Source of the DNA: a candidate division FCPU426 bacterium
Lineage (GTDB): Bacteria; Oederibacteriota; JAAXVQ01; JAUVAV01
DNA: 10,885 nt
NCBI GenBank assembly: GCA_030637655.1
Contig: DAOWGI010000052.1
Location: 1 to 10,885 of the forward strand
Direction of reading: 5' to 3'
Below the pieces are notes generated by a model. The model had not been told where the DNA came from. It searched no databases and was given only the letters and a program-made list of their open reading frames with translations. Positions 1 to 10,885 of this stretch are shown here, in pieces (positions within the stretch are counted from its first letter, which is position 1; every line of letters starts with the position of its first letter). The translations under genes were made by a program, and so were the position numbers.

Positions 1-240
1 GACGCATACGCCAACGTATACTGGGACACCGACGCATACGCCGACGTATACTGGGACACCGACGCATACGCCGACGTATACTGGGACACCGACGCATACG
101 CCAACGTATACTGCCACACCGACGCATACGCCGACGTATACTGCGACACCGACGCATACGCCGACGTATACTGCAACTCAGACCCATACCCTGACGTATA
201 CTGGGACACCGACGCATACGCCGACGTATACTGCGACTCC
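1..240 (+). repeat. Tandem 30-bp coding repeat, 8 copies visible (consensus GACGCATACGCCGACGTATACTGGGACACC; peptide THTPTYT(G/A)TP)
   Basis: Units begin at 1, 31, 61, 91, 121, 151, 181 and 211, are contiguous and differ only by a few substitutions. The array probably continues upstream of the window. Confidence 0.97.
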
Positions 241-2185
241 GACTTTAACCAATACTCCGACTGCTACTGTAACACCAACCATTACTCCGGCAGCAAAAGG
301 GTATATTGATCCGACTGTGGCTATGATCAATGTCACGCAAAATTATGAGTATATGGTCGTTGCCAATTCAGATGGTGAGATCAACCGTCTACTGATTACC
401 ATTCCGAGCGGCTGGGCAGTTCCGTTGACGCCGTCTTCCAATATTCAAGGCGGGTTGGTCTCCTTTGTTGGGAACCAGATTGAAGTGACCTATACCACAC
501 CATGGTCAGCCGGATCCTTTGACAGCATTACTTTGACTGCCACCGCACCTGGAGTGGGAGGTACTTATTACTGGGATTCCTATTTGAATGATGGAACTTA
601 TCAGATCGTCACGCCTGCTACAAAGCAGCAGTATGTCACAATTATTACACCCACAGCTACAGCCACCTCAACCTTAACCAATACTCCGACCTTCACCTCT
701 ACGGCTACCTCGACTTTGACTCCAACCGCTACGGTGACGCCGACACCGATGTTTACCGCGACGATTACCCGGACATCAACAGCATCATCGACTTCGACGA
801 TCACTTTGACAGTTACACCGACAGAAACAGTTACTTATACATCCACAGCCACACCGACCATTACATCAACTGTGACCCCGTCGATTACCTTTACCTCAAC
901 AGAGACCTGTACGATTACGGTGACAGCAACACTGACCCCTACTATCACTATGACCACAACCATAACGTTAACCTGTACGGTAACTCCGACAATTACACCC
1001 ACACCGGTATATCAGCTGGTATTGATTGTTCCGAACGAATACTTCACTCCGGGCACATTACCCGGGTATGCGGGTAGTATCAACGCTGTTACTGCGGGTT
1101 ATGGAGTTGATATCACGATCCGATTGCTTGATATGCTGACCTATCAGATTGTACCTTTTAACGGTGAATTGGGCTTGTCGACCTCAGCCGCCGCGGAGCA
1201 GGTACGGGATTTGCCGGCGCAAGTCACCATGACCAATGGACAGGCGACCATTACTCCGCGTTTCATGGAACCCGGTCAGACCTATACGGTGACAGCCACG
1301 GATTTAACGTATGGCTATGTTATAGCCGGCACCACCCGTCCGATTCCGTGCGATCCGGGAACATATTCGGCTTTTTCTTATGTAGTGGTACGTCATAATT
1401 CGCTTGCGCCCACAACCGCCATTCGAGGAGAACAGGATCTGAATATGGTTTCCTTCCAATTTACGAATCCTAATTCACCTGGTTCAGCTGTGTATAATTT
1501 GCGGGGTATAAACATAACCAGCCAGAGCTTTAGTGGGACCAATCTGCCGATGAATGAGATGTTCTCTGAGTTGGTGGTTACAGAGAGTGGTTCCGGAGAT
1601 GTTATGGCAACTCTGACGAATTTCCCGGCAGACGGAAATATATATCTTGATTTCTCCAGCCAGTCCATACTGATTTATCCTGGTGAGACGATCGAACTTA
1701 GGATTCAAATTGACTTACTTATTAACTCGCCGCATGATAGTGTGCGGATTGGTATCCTGGCGGGTGATGATATTGAATGCAATTTTATGGATGGCACACC
1801 CATGCTGGTGCGCACTACCTTTGACGATACCTTCCCCATGTTCTCAGATGATATTGTCATTAGTTCCCGGGATATGAATGATTCCTATCGGAATTATCCG
1901 AATCCGTTTGCCGCCGGCAGGGGTTATACTAATGTTGAGTACTTCCTGGAAAATGATGCTCAAGTAAGTTTGAAGATTTATAATGTAATTGGACAGCTTG
2001 TGTCCGTGATCGTGGATCAGGAGATTCAGGCCGGTGGAACAAACTTGTATCGTTACCAATGGAATGGCCGCAATGACAAAGGCCAAATTGTATTGAATGG
2101 TATTTATTTTGCGGTCTTGACCGTAAAGACGGTGGCCGTCGGGGAAACCAGGCAATTGGTGATTAAAATAGCGGTGATAAAGTAG
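2..2185 (+). CDS. 5'-truncated large secreted/surface protein with Thr/Pro-rich repeats, beta-rich (Ig-like) domains and a C-terminal FlgD-Ig / T9SS type A CTD-like sorting domain
   Basis: The frame of ORF 317..2185 is open back to base 2 ([10 protein letters not shown] x8 ... [29 protein letters not shown]), so the real start lies upstream of the window (727 aa visible). The C-terminus (about 1886-2182) reads YRNYPNPF...[13 protein letters not shown]...[22 protein letters not shown]...KIAVIK, the typical FlgD-Ig/Por-secretion-tail pattern. Confidence 0.85.
647..1006 (+). repeat. Degenerate Thr-X alternating low-complexity coding tract (about 120 aa)
   Basis: [27 protein letters not shown]...[16 protein letters not shown]: Thr/Ser at nearly every second residue, with diverged codons. 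Confidence 0.9.
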
Positions 2186-2227: not shown

Positions 2228-3859
2228 ATGAAACAGGTACTTGTGGGAACATTATTATTGGGCTTGCTCATCAGTCCGGTGCAGATCTGCCAGGCAGTGG
2301 TAGGTGATGCGGGTACTAATAGTCCTTTTGAGTTGGGCGCCGGTTCCCGTGCTTTGTCCATGGCCGGCGCTTTTACTGCTGTGGCAGATGACGCGACCTC
2401 AATATTTTGGAATCCAGGCGGTCTGGCTCAATTGGATCAGATTGAAGTAGCTGCCATGCATATTGATCTCTTTTTTGATACTCCCTATGATTTTTTTGGT
2501 ATGTCCTATCCGATTTTGGATTGGGGAACTTTTTCTTTAGGTGTAGTACGTATTGCCACAGAAGGCGTGGTTTTACGGGATGAGCGTTCCCGTATTATTG
2601 GAAGCGGTGAAGGAAGTTTAGATCTACGTGAGTATCTCATCGGATACAGCCGTGAAGTGATTGGAAATATCCGGGCCGGCGTTGTTTTTAAAATTGATCA
2701 GCAGCGCTTACTGGGTGATTTTGATACCGGGGTGGGCATGGACCTGGGATTCCATTATAACTTTCCGGAAGATCTCATGGGAGTCAGCGGTTTTGATTGG
2801 GAAAGTTTAAGTCTGGGTTTAACCTTTCAGAATCTAGTAGGCTCGCAGTTACGCTTGGGAGAGGTTATGGATGTACTTCCTCTTTTTATAAAAGCCGGTA
2901 TTGCCTACAAATATCAGTCCCGGGATTCACTAGCACAACACATTTTAATAAGTATAGCTTGGAAAAAATCAACCTGGCGGACATCCCGGTTTTCTGCCGG
3001 GCTTGAGTATGCACTTTTAGATATGATTTTTGTACGCGGAGGCATTCATTCCGCTGCCTGGACCATGGGCGGAGGAGTGAAATATATCGGTGTTGCCCTG
3101 GATTATGCCTTGGTTAGTGAAGCATTGGGCATGACACACCGGTTTACGCTTTCTTACCGTTTTGGTACCCCTATTTCCGAGCAGCGAGCCTACCGGGAAC
3201 GCCGGCGTCAAGAAGAAATTGATCGGGAAGCTAAAGCCCGGGCCGAAGAAGCTGTGGAGCAGACCCGGGAGGAAATGGGAAAGGCTTTGCGCTTGGCTAA
3301 ACGCCGTCATAATCGGGAAAAAAATGCGCTGCGCGCTAAGCAGAAGCGTCTTTTGAAGGCTGAACGGCAGCGTCAACTGAAACAGAGAAAAGCTGCAGTG
3401 GCGGATGAATACTTTAAGGCCTACCATTATTTTCAAGGCATTAAAGATTATATGGCCAAAAATTACAAACAAGCCTTAATGGAATTTGAGACCGTTGCCA
3501 AATACGATCCCAATTATCTTGAATTGTCCTTGTATCTGCAGCGTACCAAGCAGAGAAGTAAAGGGAAAGTTGAATTCATGAGCCCAAAGAGTAGTGAGTT
3601 GTATTACCAGGGTATTGATTATTATGTGTCCGACCGGTTTGAGGATGCCATACGGGTCTGGGATAAAATGCTCGGATCTGAGCCTGACAATATTTTGGTG
3701 CTCCGCAATATTGATGAAGCCAAAGAGCGCATAGCCAAATTGAAAGCCATGAAAAATTTGGCGGCCAAAGAAGAAAAACAGAAAACGAAAAACCGGGATA
3801 GCCCGGCGGAAAAAGAGGAAAAGCAGCCGGAACCGTCGTCTGTGCCACAGCCGGAGTAA
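2228..3859 (+). CDS. PorV/PorQ (UPF0164, FadL-like) outer-membrane beta-barrel protein with C-terminal coiled coil and TPR repeats
   Basis: GAGGT RBS at 2216-2220. Sec-type signal peptide MKQVLVGTLLLGLLISPVQICQA. Family motif GAGSRALSMAGAFTAVADDATSIFWNPGGLAQL. Amphipathic strands end at HRFTLSYRFG, followed by a charged coiled coil and TPR-like helices (YFQGIKDYMAKNYKQALMEFETVAKYDPNY; YYQGIDYYVSDRFEDAIRVWDKMLGSEPDN). Confidence 0.85.
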   Translation: MKQVLVGTLLLGLLISPVQICQAVVGDAGTNSPFELGAGSRALSMAGAFTAVADDATSIFWNPGGLAQLDQIEVAAMHIDLFFDTPYDFFGMSYPILDWGTFSLGVVRIATEGVVLRDERSRIIGSGEGSLDLREYLIGYSREVIGNIRAGVVFKIDQQRLLGDFDTGVGMDLGFHYNFPEDLMGVSGFDWESLSLGLTFQNLVGSQLRLGEVMDVLPLFIKAGIAYKYQSRDSLAQHILISIAWKKSTWRTSRFSAGLEYALLDMIFVRGGIHSAAWTMGGGVKYIGVALDYALVSEALGMTHRFTLSYRFGTPISEQRAYRERRRQEEIDREAKARAEEAVEQTREEMGKALRLAKRRHNREKNALRAKQKRLLKAERQRQLKQRKAAVADEYFKAYHYFQGIKDYMAKNYKQALMEFETVAKYDPNYLELSLYLQRTKQRSKGKVEFMSPKSSELYYQGIDYYVSDRFEDAIRVWDKMLGSEPDNILVLRNIDEAKERIAKLKAMKNLAAKEEKQKTKNRDSPAEKEEKQPEPSSVPQPE

Positions 3860-3886
3860 TTTAGTTTCGAATTTAATTTTTTTTAG

Positions 3887-4016
3887 TTCCGGCTGGTCCG
3901 GCTAAAGAACGCAAAATTTTTTTGACAGGATAACAGGATTGATAGGATTTATTTAAAATCCCGTAGATCCTGTTAATCTTGTCAAACATTTTTGATTCCG
4001 GCTGGTCCGGGTTAGG
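3887..4016. repeat. Composite intergenic element: long imperfect hairpin (3921-3986) flanked by a 15-bp direct repeat TTCCGGCTGGTCCGG (3887-3901 and 3996-4010)
   Basis: Left arm TTTGACAGGATAACAGGATTGATAGGATTT (3921-3950) pairs imperfectly with AAATCCCGTAGATCCTGTTAATCTTGTCAAA (3956-3986). The arms are built of roughly 9-bp ACAGGAT units. Confidence 0.8.
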
Positions 4017-4047
4017 TGTGAAGTCAAATGGTGAAAGGATACGAACC

Positions 4048-6477
4048 TTGCCGAAATTGTTCGCTAAATTTTTTAGAAAACCAGTAGTGCAGAAGTATGA
4101 AATAGAGGTGCCTGCTGTTGAACGTCACTTGGGTGATATTCGCGATTTCATCACCCAAGCCTCCACAGAAGCCGGTTTTTCTCAGCATGAAATCAACAAT
4201 ATTAAACTGGCTGTTGATGAAGCGTGTTCCAATGTAGTGCGTCATGCCTACAAAGGTATGGAATCCGGGAAAATCCGCTTGGAAGTCTTGCGTCGTGACG
4301 GTGAAGTTGAGATTGTTATCCAGGACCAGGGTAAAAGCTTTGAGTGGAAAAAATCCAGAACCCCTAATTTGAATCGGTATGTGGAAATCGGAAAACGTGG
4401 TGGCTTGGGTATCTGGTTTATCCGCAAGTTGATGGATGAAGCTGAGTATAAATCCAATCGCCAAGTAAATTCTTTGCGTTTGGTGAAGAGAGTAAAGGAG
4501 TTTGGCCCGCAAACCACAGCTGCTCCGGCGTTGCCGGAAACCACTTTGCCGGCTACGGCGCACAAAATTCCGCGGCCACGTGGGATCAGCAAGGTCAGTG
4601 TAAAATATTTATTCCCGGTCACCACCTCGGTTGCGATTTTGGTTCTGATTATTTTTGCGTATATGTTTTCCACCCAAGCCAGTACCATGCGCGAAAAAAT
4701 TATGTCTAATGCGGAAGATACGGTTAGAGGTATGGCCCGGGACTCGGAAAATTATTTGTTAAAGCAAAACGATCTCCACCTGGCCGGTTTGGTCAACACC
4801 TTGGTGCGGACCAATACCCGAATTGCCTATGCGTATATTTTGGACAACGAGAAAATGGTGTGGGCCCATTCCATTACCAAAAAGTTGTTCAAACCCTTGC
4901 CGACGATGCCGGATTTTCGTCTGCCGGAAAAGGATGAGGTTCTGATCCAGAGTATACAGGATGATCAAGACAACATTGTGTATGATATCAGTACCGGGGT
5001 TTTCCTGGGAAACATTCGTTTGGGAACAGCGCATCTGGGTATTTGTGAGATGGCAATTATGGGTGATATAAAAACCGGTCGCCAAAATGCTGTTCTGATA
5101 TTTATCATTATTTTGGCCGTGAGTACTACTGCGGCGTATTTGTTTATGATCTTCTTAATTGCTCCGATTCGCACGCTAACTGAAGGTATGCTGGCCGTGA
5201 GTGAAGGGCGCCTGGATCATCGTATTATTATTAACAGCAACGATGAGTTTGGGCAGATTGCCGGTGTGTTTAATGAAATGACCCAACGGTTTAGTGAGGC
5301 CCAGAAAAACCTGTTGGAACAGGAACGTATTCAACAGGAAATGCAGGTGGCCCAGGAAATTCAGCATACGCTGTTGCCGAGGGAATTGCCGAAGATTGAA
5401 GGGTATGATGTGGCCAGCATGTACCGTAGCGCTAAAGAGGTTGGCGGCGATTATTTTGATTTTGTCTGGGTGGATGACAATATTCTGGGTGTGGCGGTAG
5501 CCGACGTTTCGGGTAAAGGTATTCCCGGATCTTTGGTTATGACCATGATCCGTACTGCCTTGCGTTTGGAAGCACGGGGGAATCACAGCGCTACGGATGT
5601 GATGAGCAAAGTTAATTCCTTTGTTACGCGGGACATGAAAAAAGGCATGTTTGTTACCATGTTCTACATTATATTGGATTCGCGGCGCCGTATTATTAAT
5701 TATTCCAGTGCCGGGCATAATCCGATGATTCTGTACCGCGAAGAGAACAAGGAGGTCTACTTTTTAAAGCCGCGTGGTTTTCCCTTAGGGATAGATCTTC
5801 CCAATCCGGAATTGTTTGTTAAATCCATGACCCAGGAAAGCGTAAAATTGAAAAAGGGGGATCTGCTGCTTCTGTACACAGACGGTATCACAGAAGCCAT
5901 GAATTCGCGGCGTGAACAATATGGGGAGCAACGGGTAATAGACATTATTAAGCAGTATCATCAGCTTTCGGCAGATGAGTTTGTAGCCAAACTGACGGAA
6001 GATATTGCCGTTTTTACTGAAGATTATCCGCAAAATGACGATATTACCTTTGTAGCTATTAAAGAGAAGATGATGGCAGATGAGGTCCAGTTTAATTTGC
6101 GGCGTAAATTATTCTATCTGGTGGAAGAACGGGGAGTCTCGGTGCGGGAAGCCTGCCGGTATTTGAATGTTTCCACCACTACGTACTATCGACTCAAACA
6201 AATACGCGATACGAAGGGTGTTGCGGCTTTGCGTACAACCACGCAGAGAAAAGATGCGCAAATGCAGCAATTGTCTTTGAGTGAACGCCAAAAGATATTG
6301 CAGGTGATCATGGAGCAACCGGAGTATGGAGCCAAACGTATTTCGGAAATTTTGGCCGCTTCAGCGGGTGGGGAGATGAAGATTCCGCCCAAATTAGTAT
6401 ACCAGGAATTGAAGCGGTTGCGTTTGTCCACCAAGGAAGAAAGATATGAATATGTCGCTAAGAAGAAAGTTGACTAG
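4048..6477 (+). CDS. Membrane-bound bifunctional partner-switching regulator: RsbW-like Ser kinase (HATPase_c_2) - TM - extracytoplasmic sensor - TM - HAMP - SpoIIE/PP2C phosphatase - C-terminal bipartite HTH
   Basis: Kinase boxes: LAVDEACSNVVRHAY, IQDQGKSF, GGLGIWFIRKLMD. TM segments at about 4606-4668 and 5089-5160. HAMP: PIRTLTEGMLAVSEGRLDHRIIINSNDEFGQIAGVFNEM. PP2C motifs: EVGGDYFD, VADVSGKG, SAGHNP, LYTDGITEA, DDITFV. HTH: VSVREACRYLNVSTTTYYRL. Start moved from 3979 (inside the repeat) to TTG 4048, which has AAAGGA at 4034-4039; 809 aa. Confidence 0.9.
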   Translation: MPKLFAKFFRKPVVQKYEIEVPAVERHLGDIRDFITQASTEAGFSQHEINNIKLAVDEACSNVVRHAYKGMESGKIRLEVLRRDGEVEIVIQDQGKSFEWKKSRTPNLNRYVEIGKRGGLGIWFIRKLMDEAEYKSNRQVNSLRLVKRVKEFGPQTTAAPALPETTLPATAHKIPRPRGISKVSVKYLFPVTTSVAILVLIIFAYMFSTQASTMREKIMSNAEDTVRGMARDSENYLLKQNDLHLAGLVNTLVRTNTRIAYAYILDNEKMVWAHSITKKLFKPLPTMPDFRLPEKDEVLIQSIQDDQDNIVYDISTGVFLGNIRLGTAHLGICEMAIMGDIKTGRQNAVLIFIIILAVSTTAAYLFMIFLIAPIRTLTEGMLAVSEGRLDHRIIINSNDEFGQIAGVFNEMTQRFSEAQKNLLEQERIQQEMQVAQEIQHTLLPRELPKIEGYDVASMYRSAKEVGGDYFDFVWVDDNILGVAVADVSGKGIPGSLVMTMIRTALRLEARGNHSATDVMSKVNSFVTRDMKKGMFVTMFYIILDSRRRIINYSSAGHNPMILYREENKEVYFLKPRGFPLGIDLPNPELFVKSMTQESVKLKKGDLLLLYTDGITEAMNSRREQYGEQRVIDIIKQYHQLSADEFVAKLTEDIAVFTEDYPQNDDITFVAIKEKMMADEVQFNLRRKLFYLVEERGVSVREACRYLNVSTTTYYRLKQIRDTKGVAALRTTTQRKDAQMQQLSLSERQKILQVIMEQPEYGAKRISEILAASAGGEMKIPPKLVYQELKRLRLSTKEERYEYVAKKKVD

Positions 6478-6499
6478 CTGACTTTATCTATGCTACCAT
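6470..6499 (+). promoter_or_regulatory. Putative internal sigma70-type promoter for the STAS gene
   Basis: TTGACT (6470-6475), an 18-nt spacer ending in TGC (extended -10), then TACCAT (6494-6499), just upstream of RBS AAGGAG (6510-6515). Motif match only. Confidence 0.45.
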
Positions 6500-6524
6500 C
6501 GGGACGGTAAAGGAGCTTGAACTT

Positions 6525-7367
6525 ATGGATGGGATTCAGATTTCAGTTGAAGCAGCAGGTGCAAACAACGATATTCAAGTAGTTGAAATCAAGGGGTATA
6601 TTGATACTACGACTTCCAGTGAGTTGGAACGCGTGATTCAAGGGTTGCTCCGCGAGCAGCACTACAAAATCATCGTAAATCTGCTGGAGGTAGACTATAT
6701 CAGCTCCGCCGGGTGGGGTATTTTCATCTCCGAGATTAAAAATATCCGGACTAATCGCGGAGATTTGAAATTGGCCGGTATGTCCGAAACGGTGAATGAG
6801 GTATATGAATTATTGGAATTTTCCACGATTTTGACTTCAGCCAACACAGTCAATGATGCGGTTCGCCTTTTTGGGGATGGCAGCGAAGCAGCTGCCAAGG
6901 CTGCCAAATCAGCACCAACTCCAACACATCCCACACCTCATCCTAAGCCGGAAACTGTTAAGCGTCTTGAGCCACAGTCTGTGAGTCCGGCTCAAAGTGC
7001 GGCTCCTCAAGCACCAATAATTGCAACTGGAACTTCGGCGGTTTCTGACAAGTCTTCGGTCTCACAATTGGCCGCGAGTATGAATGCTGCCTCAATGTCA
7101 AAAACACCGGCTCCTCCAACGCCGGCGCCGGTCAATGATACTGCAGTCAACGCTGCGTCGGGAGGAATACTGCCATTGATTGACCGTATACAGGCGCTGG
7201 TGAAAGCACATCCGGATTGGGGTGCCTGGAAATTAAAAAGTGAATTGAACCAGCGGCGTGGAACACAACCTAAAGTCAGTTGGGGTGAGGTGCGCGCTGA
7301 ATTAAAATATAATGATTTGGGTTCGAAAAAAGATCGGTTTAAATTTGCCCGTAGCCGGCAAGTGTAA
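6525..7367 (+). CDS. STAS-domain anti-sigma-factor antagonist (RsbV/SpoIIAA-like) with Pro/Ala/Ser linker and C-terminal HTH-like domain
   Basis: KGYIDTTTSSELERVI, KIIVNLLEVDYISSAGWGIF (phosphoacceptor SSAG motif, 6693-6713), GDLKLAGMSETVNEVYELLEF. A low-complexity linker of about 100 aa precedes IQALVKAHPDWGAWKLKSELN...VSWGEVRAELKYNDL. RBS AAGGAG. Confidence 0.9.
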   Translation: MDGIQISVEAAGANNDIQVVEIKGYIDTTTSSELERVIQGLLREQHYKIIVNLLEVDYISSAGWGIFISEIKNIRTNRGDLKLAGMSETVNEVYELLEFSTILTSANTVNDAVRLFGDGSEAAAKAAKSAPTPTHPTPHPKPETVKRLEPQSVSPAQSAAPQAPIIATGTSAVSDKSSVSQLAASMNAASMSKTPAPPTPAPVNDTAVNAASGGILPLIDRIQALVKAHPDWGAWKLKSELNQRRGTQPKVSWGEVRAELKYNDLGSKKDRFKFARSRQV

Positions 7368-7382
7368 AAAGGGGGGCTTCCC

Positions 7383-8498
7383 TTGAGCGGTTTTAATTTC
7401 ACTTCAACCATTCATGGCAAACAGTATGATTATACGGTTCGCACCATGAACTTTGATTCCATTCAACGCATTGTTATCAACTTAAATGATCAGAACAAAG
7501 TCATCAATACCCGTGAAATTTCCTATGATTCGAAATTGACGGATGAAAAATTGAAGGCATTGGTTAAGGATACGCATGAAGAACGCGTGAATACCTTGCA
7601 GGAATTAATAAAGATTTCCGCCAAATTGGAAGTAAAACCCGATGTGGATTCCAATCACAAATTGGGCATGGTCTTTTTAAATAATGGCTTGGGTCGTGAG
7701 ACGATTGCGGAATTCAAACGCGCGCTGACTATATCCCCGGACAATGCTCCGATTTTGAATCATTTGGGATTGGCTTTGTTGCTGGAAGAAAAATTTGGGG
7801 AAGCCTTGAAGGTTTTCAAACGCGCAGTAGAGATCAAACCCAGCTATCCGGATTTACACAACAATTATGGTTTGGCCTTGCTCAAAACCGAAAAGTATGA
7901 CGAGGCACTTAAAGAATTCGAAACGGCGATTGATATTAACCGGAAATATGCGGAAGCGCATTTTAACGTAAGCCTCTGTCTGGTTTCGCAGTATTCCAGC
8001 AACGGGAACCTCACCCCGGATATGATCGAACGCATTCAAACGCATCTGCAGACAGCTGTGGAAAGTAATGTATATTTTGATAATAAATATTTTAAGGTCG
8101 CACAAAATTATTTTTCTAAAGAGCAATACGCGGAAGCACGACAAGCTCTAATTGAGGCCAAAGCCGCGGTCTTAACTCAAACCGGCAGTGAGATTTACCA
8201 TGAGTTTTATTTGCGCTTGAAATACGGTGAAGAGGGAGTGGATCGCAAGGCCACTGAGCATTATATTGAGAAATTGGAAGAAATATTGGAAAAACACGCG
8301 CATTACGTGGACATTCATAATGATCTGGGTGTTGCCTATCTTATTCAATGCCGTTTTTTGTTCAATCGGGCCATTACGGAATTCAAAAAAGCGTTGGCCA
8401 TTAATCCAAATTATACTCAGTCCAAAAAGAATTTGAAATTGGCGGAAAATGAGGGCAAGGGATTTCTTATTCTTTTGCGCGCTATTCTTTACTTCTGA
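7383..8498 (+). CDS. Tetratricopeptide-repeat protein with uncharacterised N-terminal domain
   Basis: Several TPR units (HKLGMVFLNNGLGRETIAEFKRALTISPDN; NHLGLALLLEEKFGEALKVFKRAVEIKPSY; NNYGLALLKTEKYDEALKEFETAIDINRKY). TTG start 15 nt after the STAS stop, with a G-rich RBS at 7369-7376. No signal peptide. Confidence 0.88.
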   Translation: MSGFNFTSTIHGKQYDYTVRTMNFDSIQRIVINLNDQNKVINTREISYDSKLTDEKLKALVKDTHEERVNTLQELIKISAKLEVKPDVDSNHKLGMVFLNNGLGRETIAEFKRALTISPDNAPILNHLGLALLLEEKFGEALKVFKRAVEIKPSYPDLHNNYGLALLKTEKYDEALKEFETAIDINRKYAEAHFNVSLCLVSQYSSNGNLTPDMIERIQTHLQTAVESNVYFDNKYFKVAQNYFSKEQYAEARQALIEAKAAVLTQTGSEIYHEFYLRLKYGEEGVDRKATEHYIEKLEEILEKHAHYVDIHNDLGVAYLIQCRFLFNRAITEFKKALAINPNYTQSKKNLKLAENEGKGFLILLRAILYF

Positions 8499-8761: not shown

Positions 8762-9952
8762 TTGCTGATTTTAGTTATTAACTGTGGAAGTTCATCTTTG
8801 AAATATACGCTTTTTAAACACGAACAGGAAATTGCGTCTGGATTGGTGGAACGAATTGGAACCGAGACGGCAGTGTATACGCGCCAGGTTCGGGGAAAAA
8901 AACAATCAGCCCTAACCATGTCCGTGCCCAATCATGAACGCGCTATTAGATTAATGATGGAATATTTAGGGCGGGATAACCTGGTGCGCCGGCCGGAAGA
9001 TATTGAAGCTGTGGGACATCGGGTAGCGCATGGCGGCCCGAATTTTACGGATTCCGCGCTGGTGGATGAACGGGTTCGCAATAATCAGATAGCGCGGGAT
9101 TTGGCGCCCTTGCATCAAGTTAATTATGACGGCATTGAAGCGGCTTTGAAATTATTGCCCCAACAGCCGCAGGTAGCTGTTTTTGATACTGCTTTTCACC
9201 AGACAATGCCGGCCAAAGCGTATACCTACGCTTTGCCTTATCGTTTTTTTACAGAATTAAAGATTCGCAAATACGGATTTCATGGCACTTCACACAAGTA
9301 TGTGTCTCTGCGGGCCGCGCAATTACTTAAGAAAACAGCGCGCCGGATCAATGTGATTACTTTGCATTTGGGAAACGGTTCATCCCTGGCCGCGATACAA
9401 AAAGGGAAGTGCATTGACACTAGTATGGGGCTCACTCCGTTGGCCGGTGTGGTCATGGGGACCAGGTCCGGGGATATTGATCCGGCGATTGTAACATATT
9501 TGATGGAAAAAGAAGGTCTCAGTGCGGCTGAGGTAGAAAATTTGCTCAATAAAAAGAGTGGAATCTTAGGCGTGTCCGGGATATCAAATGATTTGCGGGA
9601 AGTGATTAAGCAGGCTGGCAAAGGAAACGCGCGGGCCAAGTTATGCTTGCAGGTGTTGGCATACAGCATTCAAAAATACATCGGGGCCTATCATGCCATT
9701 CTGGGTGGAGTGGATGCCCTGGTATTTACTGCTGGTATTGGCGAAAAGAGTCCAATGGTACGGAAACTTATATGTGATGGCTTGCAGGGTTTGGGAGTGA
9801 AGTTGGATGTCGGCAAGAATCGCAAGACCATTGCTCAGGAAAAAGCGATCCACGCGGCTGGTTCTAAAATTAAGATACTGGTCATTCCAACGCGAGAAGA
9901 ATATATGATTGCACAAGAAACCAGGCGAATTATTCATAAAGCAAAGAAATAA
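8762..9952 (+). CDS. ackA: Acetate kinase
   Basis: ILVINCGSSSLKY, GHRVAHGG, LAPLH, VFDTAFHQT, RKYGFHGTSH, HLGNGSS, DTSMGLTPLAGVVMGTRSGDIDP, FTAGIGE, IPTREE; 396 aa. GGAGG RBS at 8749-8753 before a TTG start. Confidence 0.97.
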   Translation: MLILVINCGSSSLKYTLFKHEQEIASGLVERIGTETAVYTRQVRGKKQSALTMSVPNHERAIRLMMEYLGRDNLVRRPEDIEAVGHRVAHGGPNFTDSALVDERVRNNQIARDLAPLHQVNYDGIEAALKLLPQQPQVAVFDTAFHQTMPAKAYTYALPYRFFTELKIRKYGFHGTSHKYVSLRAAQLLKKTARRINVITLHLGNGSSLAAIQKGKCIDTSMGLTPLAGVVMGTRSGDIDPAIVTYLMEKEGLSAAEVENLLNKKSGILGVSGISNDLREVIKQAGKGNARAKLCLQVLAYSIQKYIGAYHAILGGVDALVFTAGIGEKSPMVRKLICDGLQGLGVKLDVGKNRKTIAQEKAIHAAGSKIKILVIPTREEYMIAQETRRIIHKAKK

Positions 9953-9999: not shown

Positions 10000-10060
10000 T
10001 TGTCATCCCCGAATGTTTTTATCGGGGATATGGTTTAAAAAACCAGTCGGAGAATGACAA
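10000..10060. repeat. GTCAT...ATGAC-bounded multi-hairpin REP-like element downstream of ackA
   Basis: TTGTCAT (10000-10006) pairs with ATGACAA (10054-10060). Internal stems are ATCCCCGA/TCGGGGAT (10005-10012 / 10022-10029) and TGGTTT/AAACCA (10031-10036 / 10040-10045). Confidence 0.65.
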
Positions 10061-10065
10061 CCTAT

Positions 10066-10202
10066 AAAAGATTCACCACAGAGGCACAGAGTTACACAAA
10101 GGAAAGATTAAATAAAATCTTTAGAATTTATGCATTAATACAATCAATTTTTGTTTTCTCTGTGAACCTTTGTGTTCTCTGTGCCTCTGTGGTGAATCTT
10201 TT
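10066..10202. repeat. Long inverted-repeat (MITE-like) element with 9-bp-periodic CACAGAG arms
   Basis: AAAAGATTCACCACAGAGGCACAGAG (10066-10091) is the exact reverse complement of 10177-10202 (26 bp). A further 9-bp stem ACACAAAGG/CCTTTGTGT (10094-10102 / 10167-10175) encloses an AT-rich loop. Confidence 0.88.
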
Positions 10203-10308
10203 CATTTTTTATCATTTTATTTTTGACATTACCAGCTATTTCATTCACCTTGAAAACTGTTTCAAATCAAAACATCCAGTTGCAAACAATAAAAAACATT
10301 TGCGATTA

Positions 10309-10404: not shown

Positions 10405-10885
10405 ATGTCCAAGCTCACTTCAATGTCTGCTTTTCATTATCCCAAGTTTCGTACCTGGATAAAAGCCTGTACTATTTTAATTGCCGTAAGCTTTATTCTG
10501 CCCTACGTAACCTGGGCCTTTGATGCCGGGAATTATGCTATATCCCAGCCTAATTTTATGCGGATTGCTTACCTGGGAAAAACGCTGACCATCCCGGAGA
10601 AAATAGGCGCCATCAGCCAAGGATTTCAGGGCAATGGGAAAACCATAGTCTGCATCCAGGATCTGCACTGCAATTATGAGGTGCAGAAGAACATTGCCAA
10701 TATCATTCAACACCTGGTCAAAAAAAATGGTTTGAAACTGATAGGTGAAGAAGGCGCTTTTGATACGGTTAATACGGATAAGATCAGCACCTTTCCAATT
10801 AAAAAAATCCGGGAACAAGTGAGTGATTATTTTGTCAAACAGGGCAAGATCACAGGCGCGGAATATTACGCGTGCACGAGCGAAC
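10405..10885 (+). CDS. 3'-truncated ORF absent from the supplied track; N-terminus of a probable very large exported protein (IQDxHCNxExQxNI...EG...ITGAEY signature)
   Basis: AAAGGGA RBS at 10391-10397, ATG at 10405, and 160 codons open to the window end: MSKLTSMSAFHYPKFRTWIKACTILIAVSFILPYVTWAFDAG...LTIPEKIGAISQGFQGNGKTIVCIQDLHCNYEVQKNIANIIQHLVKKNGLKLIGEEGAFDTVNTDKISTFPIKKIREQVSDYFVKQGKITGAEYYACTSE. A basic stretch followed by a hydrophobic one suggests a signal peptide or anchor. Confidence 0.85.
   Translation, partial: MSKLTSMSAFHYPKFRTWIKACTILIAVSFILPYVTWAFDAGNYAISQPNFMRIAYLGKTLTIPEKIGAISQGFQGNGKTIVCIQDLHCNYEVQKNIANIIQHLVKKNGLKLIGEEGAFDTVNTDKISTFPIKKIREQVSDYFVKQGKITGAEYYACTSE

Follow-up and report, generated by a model that had tools for sequence, protein, structure and literature searches.

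A membrane-bound kinase-phosphatase and a STAS protein with homologous transposase-type helix-turn-helix tails in a candidate division FCPU426 bacterium

Kinase-phosphatase and STAS genes and their C-terminal tails

Contig DAOWGI010000052.1 of a candidate division FCPU426 bacterium, analysed here over its whole length of 10,885 bases (the window), belongs to a 3.28-Mb genome that is 91.6% complete; all genes of the contig lie on its forward strand. Its two central genes encode a kinase-phosphatase (KP, 4048..6477) and a STAS-domain protein of 280 amino acids (6525..7367). Together with the genes for a protein bearing a type IX secretion system (T9SS) sorting tail and for a PorV-like protein they form the core operon, in the order T9SS-tailed protein, PorV-like protein, enzyme and STAS protein. 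An initial annotation of the window had described the pair as a partner switch in which both proteins end in related helix-turn-helix (HTH) domains of transposase type. Both C-termini are present, in the open reading frames (ORFs) at 3979/4048-6477 and 6525-7367.

KP comprises 809 amino acids when read from the TTG at 4048, which is where a database homologue with 100% identity over the queried tail region begins, and not at 3979. The Pfam scan gave the domain order kinase-TM-Cache-TM-HAMP-PP2C-HTH-HTH, with TM denoting a transmembrane segment, and found neither a STAS domain nor a Response_reg receiver. The N-terminal domain (4111..4488) is an RsbW-type serine kinase of the HATPase_c_2 family (E 1.1e-27, 97 bits against a cut-off of 27.4). 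Among NCBIfam models it scores best against those for RsbW and SpoIIAB, the RsbW match (E 3.2e-25) being under the equivalog cut-off. Residues of the N-box and G-box, which we take to be the ATP-binding boxes, are invariant or nearly so in an alignment of 25 relatives. TM1, an sCache_3_2 sensor (Pfam E 2.6e-8), TM2 and a HAMP domain (Pfam E 1e-11) occupy 4594..5289. Because two hydrophobic segments flank the Cache domain, this domain should be periplasmic, and the kinase and the HAMP-PP2C-HTH part should be cytoplasmic. The PP2C phosphatase domain of SpoIIE/RsbU type lies at 5479..6063 (Pfam SpoIIE, E 1.7e-49, 168.9 bits), and its aspartates D468, D471, D486, D612, D664 and D665, presumably the metal ligands, are invariant in the alignment of relatives. 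The tail consists of HTH1 (6100..6237, HTH_23/HTH_28 type) and HTH2 (6268..6474, four helices, HTH_32/HTH_21 type). AlphaFold2 predicts a pair of helical subdomains with a disordered hinge between them, at a mean predicted local distance difference test score (pLDDT) of 85 and values above 90 for the HTH1 helices.

The STAS protein possesses a STAS domain at 6564..6860 (Pfam E 2.3e-14; TIGR00377 61.4 bits, cut-off 53.45). Ser61, encoded at 6705-6707, is invariant in the sequences of 37 relatives and aligns with the 'DS'-motif serine of TM1442 and RsbV, which we take to be the phospho-acceptor of these two proteins. A disordered linker rich in proline, alanine and serine follows (6885..7160, residues about 121-212), with pLDDT mostly below 60 and ten-residue blocks averaging 44-60; in relatives it measures 49-124 residues, with a mean identity of 26%. 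The protein ends in a basic four-helix tail (7176..7355, pLDDT about 96), so that the predicted model shows a confident STAS fold, a low-confidence linker and the four helices. Tails carry a net charge of +4 to +12 in 41/41 cases examined, with an isoelectric point of at least 9.5, beside an acidic STAS domain. A search for the tail in other architectures, of limited sensitivity and within a restricted length range, recovered only STAS proteins (9 matches). Databases label this widespread variant only generically, as 'STAS domain-containing protein' or 'RsbU/anti-sigma regulatory factor'.

Relatives were sampled from a collection holding one genome per species, with search patterns drawn from the STAS domain and not from the tail, and the best 80 loci (L003-L082) of 535 were retained. 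The similarity between the two tails, noticed in the initial annotation, was recovered by BLASTP for the window's own pair (E 1e-5 as a single comparison; 25% identity in an ungapped alignment of 60 residues), and hhalign aligned 41 STAS tails with 36 KP HTH2 segments over 63 columns (probability 99.0%, E 5.5e-18). Of two purpose-built hidden Markov models (HMMs), the one for KP HTH2 matches 75/80 STAS ORFs and the one for the STAS tail matches 69/73 KP ORFs. In a tree the 41 STAS tails and 36 KP HTH2 segments are split by one branch with support 100/100, which is consistent with one old duplication.

The proposed resemblance to transposases of the IS481 family is also borne out for the KP tail. 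The excised tail scores above the Pfam cut-offs for HTH_23 (27.1 bits, cut-off 24.6) and HTH_28 (26.5 bits, cut-off 25). The best NCBIfam transposase model is IS481, NF033577, whose positions 2-112 of 284 match KP residues 685-798 (E 3.8e-11), ahead of IS3 (4.2e-6) and IS630 (8e-6); the whole-protein score of KP against NF033577 is 43 bits, far under the cut-off of 224. Among relatives, HTH_23 is matched by 33/47 KP tails and HTH_32 by 30/47, and the STAS tails match HTH_21 (14/41) and HTH_Tnp_Tc3_2 (6/41). The window's STAS tail matches HTH_Tnp_Tc3_2 with an E of only 8e-4, under the family cut-off. The N-terminus of IS481 transposases, as well as of IS3 and IS630, shares with these tails the combination of HTH_23/28 and HTH_32/21 families. 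Unlike a transposase, the system described here has no DDE/rve domain and no terminal repeats, occurs in one copy per genome with vertical conservation, and carries the HTH module at the C-terminus of a signalling enzyme. The lack of a DDE domain and of terminal repeats had also been noted in the initial annotation: no DDE domain was found in the scanned ORFs of the window, the genome yielded 0 rve matches at its 91.6% completeness, and the region 5600-7700 contains only short imperfect inverted-repeat pairs, none of them convincing.

Fold searches with the tails returned transposase and Pax-type bipartite DNA-binding domains as well as winged-helix regulators, with matches spanning both subdomains of the bipartite domains of Tc3, TnsB, Mos1, SETMAR and Pax. 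Searching PDB sequences with a profile of the tail yielded a single weak match (3o60, E 0.0028), and an ESM Atlas search with the STAS tail gave no usable match.

Transposases are not, as had been assumed, the nearest outside relatives of the module. Beyond the KP family, the closest proteins are HTH modules fused to family 2 glycosyltransferases (GT2) or free-standing (E about 1e-17 to 1e-25). In this family two bipartite HTH modules stand in tandem, either N-terminal to a GT2 domain in proteins of up to 2949 amino acids or alone in proteins of 226-391 amino acids. No DDE domain was detected in 42 scanned proteins of both kinds. As in KP, the module is in many of these proteins fused to a membrane enzyme, apparently through another domestication of the same module; unlike KP, they carry it in two copies, at the N-terminus and joined to polysaccharide synthases. 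The window's own genome yielded no such protein.

Conservation of the pair and lineages without the STAS tail

Within the length range searched, 1756 relatives of the STAS-tail protein were found at E <=1e-3, and 535 of 575 candidate stretches encode one. The 80 loci belong mostly to Calditrichota, Caldithrix included, and also to KSB1, Zixiibacteriota, Goldiibacteriota, Firestonebacteria and metagenome-assembled genomes labelled Bacteroidota/Cytophagia; close relatives bear candidate division FCPU426 names. All 80 STAS ORFs retain the tail, as judged with the purpose-built HMMs. A KP-type gene lies immediately 5' of the STAS gene in 71/80 loci (L016 included, whose upstream ORF is truncated with HTH2 present), and in 59/65 of those having at least 3 kb upstream. 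In the six exceptions the STAS gene adjoins an M1 peptidase gene, and a KP with the tail is encoded elsewhere in 5/5 of their genomes searched. Tail domains in the window's own genome are confined to the KP/STAS pair.

Within the window's phylum, 60 other genomes were sampled, and 23 contain the KP tail, with one match each. The same holds for each of the 24 genomes with a match. Non-synonymous divergence (dN) between the window and four genomes of the same order is 0.23 for the STAS tail, 0.21 for the STAS domain, 0.32 for HTH1, 0.48 for HTH2 and 0.93 for the linker. Only dN was compared, with no dN/dS ratio, because synonymous sites are saturated (pS 0.70-0.77).

These results bear on whether the tails are recent insertion-sequence debris, or a chance resemblance without function. 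The window's STAS tail does fall under the Pfam cut-offs, as debris might, but the KP tail occurs as a single match per genome in the phylum sample and is present across several candidate phyla, the genome lacks rve, the tail has a dN as low as that of the STAS domain, and the two tails align at an E of 5.5e-18. The view of the initial annotation that the pair is not debris therefore stands, given its conservation, single copy and purifying selection, and we regard the debris explanation as refuted by these results.

The STAS tail is less widely distributed in the window's phylum than the KP tail. It was found in only 11 genomes of the sample, from families f1 and f2, and in none of 13 genomes of families f9, f13 and f15. 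We analysed 12 KP loci from these three families (L110-L121). Nine have an adjacent STAS ORF that ends at most 6 residues past the STAS domain, and three have no adjacent STAS gene within the stretch fetched. KP in the tail-less loci retains HTH1 and HTH2, and four tail-less loci that were checked show the full order of cargo, PorV-like protein, KP, STAS and tetratricopeptide repeat (TPR) protein. Since the operon persists without the STAS tail, the tail cannot be the general output of the system. The initial annotation had offered direct DNA binding by the STAS tail as that output; as a general mechanism this does not hold, with the tail missing from 9/12 same-phylum loci in which the enzyme keeps its HTH domains.

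The two kinds of lineage also differ in the conservation of HTH2. In the 58 tail-bearing loci of other phyla the median scores are 333 bits for PP2C, 41.0 for HTH1 and 69.6 for HTH2, compared with 342, 69.5 and 37.3 in the 12 tail-less loci of the window's phylum. Among within-group pairs at a PP2C identity of 0.55-0.75, HTH2 identity is 0.47 in the window's clade, 0.52 in the other tail-bearing phyla and 0.28 in the tail-less group. KP HTH2 is thus markedly diverged in the lineages lacking the STAS tail, and the comparison points to a functional coupling of the two domains, in figures that are to be read as patterns and not as probabilities because the lineages are few and related. The natural split between tail-bearing and tail-less lineages offers a ready-made comparative experiment on what the tail contributes.

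Docking, DNA binding and the output of the switch

The best explanation that we can offer, held tentatively, is a conserved membrane-anchored partner-switching module in which the STAS tail docks on KP HTH2 and acts as a tether. A single inner-membrane protein would combine an RsbW-type kinase on the cytoplasmic side of TM1 with a periplasmic Cache sensor, HAMP and PP2C, and, judging from the families concerned, its kinase and phosphatase would both act on Ser61 of the neighbouring STAS protein. The two-part HTH of KP would have been recruited long ago from the DNA-binding N-terminus of a transposase of IS481/IS3/IS630 type, and the STAS tail, on its long disordered linker, would stem from one duplication of HTH2. 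The two HTH2-type domains may accordingly form a matched pair, with the STAS tail most likely docking on KP HTH2. Docking would hold the substrate near both catalytic domains and would insulate the pair from the other partner-switching modules of the genome. We prefer this explanation because it accommodates the joint constraint on HTH2 and the STAS tail, the fact that HTH2 in particular was duplicated, and a linker that is long and variable. In addition, further STAS, RsbW-like and Cache-PP2C genes lie on seven other contigs (C118, C30, C10, C92, C43, C67 and C19), including a STAS-kinase fusion on C43, so that a tether could prevent cross-talk; none of the seven contigs carries the tail domains. 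Three roles for the tails had been listed in the initial annotation, and of these docking appears better supported than the other readings, owing to the relaxed HTH2 of lineages without the STAS tail, which at the same time have removed tail DNA binding as a general mechanism.

Several points weigh against docking. The 12 tail-less genomes represent three families, and hence few independent lineages, so that the p-values of a Mann-Whitney comparison overstate the case. Binding of the two domains to adjacent sites of a single ligand would produce the same coupled constraint. KP HTH2 persists, if weakly, in tail-less lineages and must therefore have some further role. Both domains are basic, with median net charges of +8 for the STAS tail and +4 for KP HTH2, and this shared charge fits a common polyanion such as DNA better than it fits charge-complementary docking. 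The structural matches are middling, with no Foldseek match against the PDB at E <=1e-3 and VIA Z-scores all below 8, and the fold evidence is therefore supportive only. Finally, the genome encodes 12 sigma-70-type genes, all on other contigs, and a distant sigma factor is possible.

The shared charge agrees with an alternative that we consider possible, if rather doubtful, in which the STAS-tail protein would itself form the output, as a regulator that binds DNA in the manner of CapS. Phosphorylation of Ser61 would then set its access to DNA, for example by keeping the unphosphorylated protein on the membrane-bound kinase and releasing the phosphorylated one, and the KP HTH would bind DNA too. 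The tail falls within sequence families of transposase DNA-binding domains, 41/41 tails are strongly basic beside the acidic STAS domain, the fold matches are to bipartite DNA-binding domains (Tc3, TnsB, Mos1, SETMAR and Pax), and the operon has no other obvious DNA-binding output.

A precedent exists in the CapK/CapS system (Chambers et al., EMBO J 2026, PMC13373217). CapS is a STAS protein with a winged HTH (wHTH) domain, a repressor that loses DNA binding once it is phosphorylated by the RsbW-like kinase CapK. According to that report, CapK also carries an HTH, whose role there is unknown, and is a soluble protein with the order HTH-STAS-GHKL, without phosphatase or sensor; CapS is controlled through STAS dimerisation, and the capK/capS genes flank immune operons (PMC13373217). 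The likeness, drawn from architecture only, lies in a STAS protein with a C-terminal HTH-type domain and an RsbW-like kinase bearing an HTH. The enzyme described here differs in its order kinase-TM-Cache-TM-HAMP-PP2C-HTH-HTH with no STAS domain, and its neighbourhood holds no immune operon, the neighbours being T9SS-tailed, PorV-like and TPR proteins and ackA, or DUF456, DUF4159, DUF4175 and patatin. With CapK/CapS published, the concept of a sigma-independent STAS-HTH switch whose kinase also has an HTH is less new than the initial annotation assumed (PMC13373217).

Other evidence speaks against DNA binding as the output. The tail-less lineages that were checked retain the operon with an intact STAS domain. 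The disordered linker of 49-124 residues uncouples the STAS domain from the tail, unlike in CapS, whose wHTH comes after the STAS domain with no such linker (PMC13373217). No candidate operator was found, and the only repeat nearby is a genome-specific dispersed element with unrelated genes downstream. Docking and DNA binding are nevertheless compatible, as both domains could sit adjacent to each other on DNA.

Partner switching is a classic form of bacterial signalling, with RsbU/RsbV/RsbW and SpoIIE/SpoIIAA/SpoIIAB as the systems of Bacillus. In these, an RsbW-type kinase phosphorylates a serine of the STAS protein and a PP2C phosphatase takes the phosphate off. The same components recur in the pair described here: a serine kinase of the HATPase_c_2 family, a PP2C, and a STAS protein as substrate, whose conserved serine lies in the 'DS/SS-AG-xG' helix. 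In contrast to the Bacillus systems, a single membrane protein holds both kinase and phosphatase, separated by a periplasmic Cache domain, the operon includes a PorV-like outer-membrane gene and no linked sigma factor, and the enzyme bears HTH domains, as does the substrate in many lineages.

In a canonical arrangement, the N-terminal RsbW-type domain would hold an unlinked sigma factor that unphosphorylated STAS protein frees, and the HTH tails would be accessory. The best matches of the kinase domain, to the RsbW and SpoIIAB models, agree with this, as do the 12 sigma-70-type genes. As initially annotated, though, the window has no sigma factor (no sigma-70 region 2 on the contig), no gene family conserved in the surroundings of the 80 loci is a sigma factor, and on the seven contigs with further partner-switching genes the only sigma-70-type gene is on C67, 25 kb away from the STAS gene there. 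Such an arrangement would also leave two conserved, selected HTH-type domains unexplained, and we judge it improbable.

Outputs of partner switching beyond sigma factors (SypA, HenR, CapS) have only recently begun to emerge. SypE of Vibrio fischeri is said to be a cytoplasmic protein with a central receiver domain, combining an RsbW-like kinase and a PP2C for the STAS substrate SypA. The output of SypE/SypA is reportedly not a sigma factor, and neither protein is reported to have HTH domains. KP resembles SypE in joining an RsbW-like kinase and a PP2C in one polypeptide, and differs in having Cache and HAMP domains, HTH domains and, by Pfam, no receiver.

The core output of the module does not depend on the STAS tail. 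For the output shared by both types of lineage there remain KP HTH1, the TPR protein and an unlinked partner, and it would probably proceed through HTH1, by nucleic-acid binding at the membrane, and/or through the TPR protein conserved alongside, with no sigma factor dedicated to it.

The C-terminus of KP varies between lineages, which affects another claim of the initial annotation, that both fusions end neatly after the HTH domain. This is true of the window's clade, where KP ends in KKKVD, but 61/69 KPs outside that clade continue for at least 80 residues beyond HTH2 (80-600 residues). In these long KPs (L011-L082) a nearly invariant motif, K-x-P-G-T-P-x-x-T-L-D-G, stands directly behind HTH2; it is absent from the window's clade. 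TPR matches were detected in 9/33 sampled extensions, so that TPRs are fused to the enzyme in some other lineages; a fusion in every other lineage had been considered and was ruled out by the same count. In some lineages the net charge of the segments behind HTH2 falls as low as -95, and the median of the extensions is -3.

The tails might instead bind a third partner, such as the TPR protein, the acidic C-terminal extension of some lineages or anionic membrane lipids. The position of the TPR gene after the STAS gene in the window's phylum, the TPR fused behind HTH2 in 9/33 sampled enzymes, the segments with charges down to -95 and the fusion of the nearest outside relatives to membrane GT2 enzymes would all suit such a partner, but 24/33 sampled extensions have no TPR and the extensions show a median charge of only -3. 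We hold binding of a third partner to be very improbable.

Three features of the system are unusual, namely a kinase and a phosphatase in one membrane sensor, a domesticated transposase HTH duplicated onto the substrate, and the tight linkage to a PorV-like gene. No published description of the KP/STAS-tail system was found in the full-text literature searched, which leaves out most subscription journals. Locus L018 is labelled Caldithrix abyssi, presumably a cultured species, and the questions raised here should therefore be testable at the bench.

Neighbouring genes, repeats and hairpins

The first gene of the conserved cluster (2..2185, open at the contig start) encodes a secreted or surface protein that has Pro/Thr-rich repeats and, at its C-terminus, a T9SS type A sorting domain (TIGR04183 Por_Secre_tail, 26 bits, cut-off 23; FlgD_ig, 27.8 bits). 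A 30-nt tandem array at 1-243 (8.1 copies, 90% matches) encodes its Pro/Thr repeat. A homologous C-terminus precedes the PorV-like gene in 40/80 loci. The second gene (2228..3859) encodes an outer-membrane barrel of the PorV/PorQ family (NF033709 PorV_fam, 101.3 bits, cut-off 90), with a signal peptide (hydrophobic at residues 3-27) at the N-terminus, then a charged helical region and a TPR-like C-terminus, whose Pfam TPR_2 match of 25.1 bits is under the cut-off of 27. It lies immediately 5' of the enzyme gene in 58/80 loci.

In a further, rather unlikely possibility, the PorV-like protein, with its long periplasmic helix/TPR part and the T9SS-tailed cargo, would report secretion or the state of the cell surface to the Cache domain. 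The enzyme would set the phosphorylation of its tethered substrate, and the output would pass through a membrane-anchored, transposase-derived DNA-binding module and not through a sigma factor. If true, this trans-envelope route would be a new way in which Calditrichota, KSB1 and related candidate phyla link type IX-like secretion with gene expression.

Downstream of the STAS gene, the window encodes a cytoplasmic TPR protein (7383..8498) with matches to Pfam TPR families and without a hydrophobic segment. In the window's phylum this gene is the operon's fifth, and it follows the STAS gene in 7/7 loci of the window's clade and in 4/4 tail-less loci checked. An acetate kinase gene, ackA (8762..9952), comes next and is found downstream in 6/7 loci of the window's clade. 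In loci of Calditrichota type the conserved downstream genes are instead DUF456, DUF4159, DUF4175 and patatin. The last ORF (10405..10884) is open at its 3' end, with 160 amino acids visible and an N-terminal hydrophobic stretch, and had no family match in Pfam or NCBIfam.

Between the PorV-like and KP genes lies a dispersed hairpin repeat of about 170 nt on the forward strand (3880-4047, core 3903..4035), which is not part of the conserved system. It forms a long hairpin, TTGACAGGATAACAGGAT ... ATCCTGTTAATCCTGTCAA, with a fold z of -4.5. By nhmmer, 50 distinct copies were found in the window's own genome and 0 in L003-L082. Many copies lie just 5' of genes in the same orientation, and the genes behind 18 copies are functionally diverse, one of them being the STAS gene on C67. 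The copy at 3903..4035 looks like an insertion into the operon, because the PorV-like and KP ORFs abut or overlap in relatives of the clade such as L003. The repeat was considered as an operator for the HTH tails and ruled out, with 0 copies in the 80 loci and unrelated genes downstream.

The Rfam scan of the window returned nothing real. A 30%-GC stretch between the acetate kinase gene and the last ORF contains a near-perfect long inverted repeat, or hairpin, at 10046-10221 (-70 kcal/mol, z = -11), which has only sub-threshold matches to plant microRNA precursors in Rfam, reflecting its generic hairpin shape.

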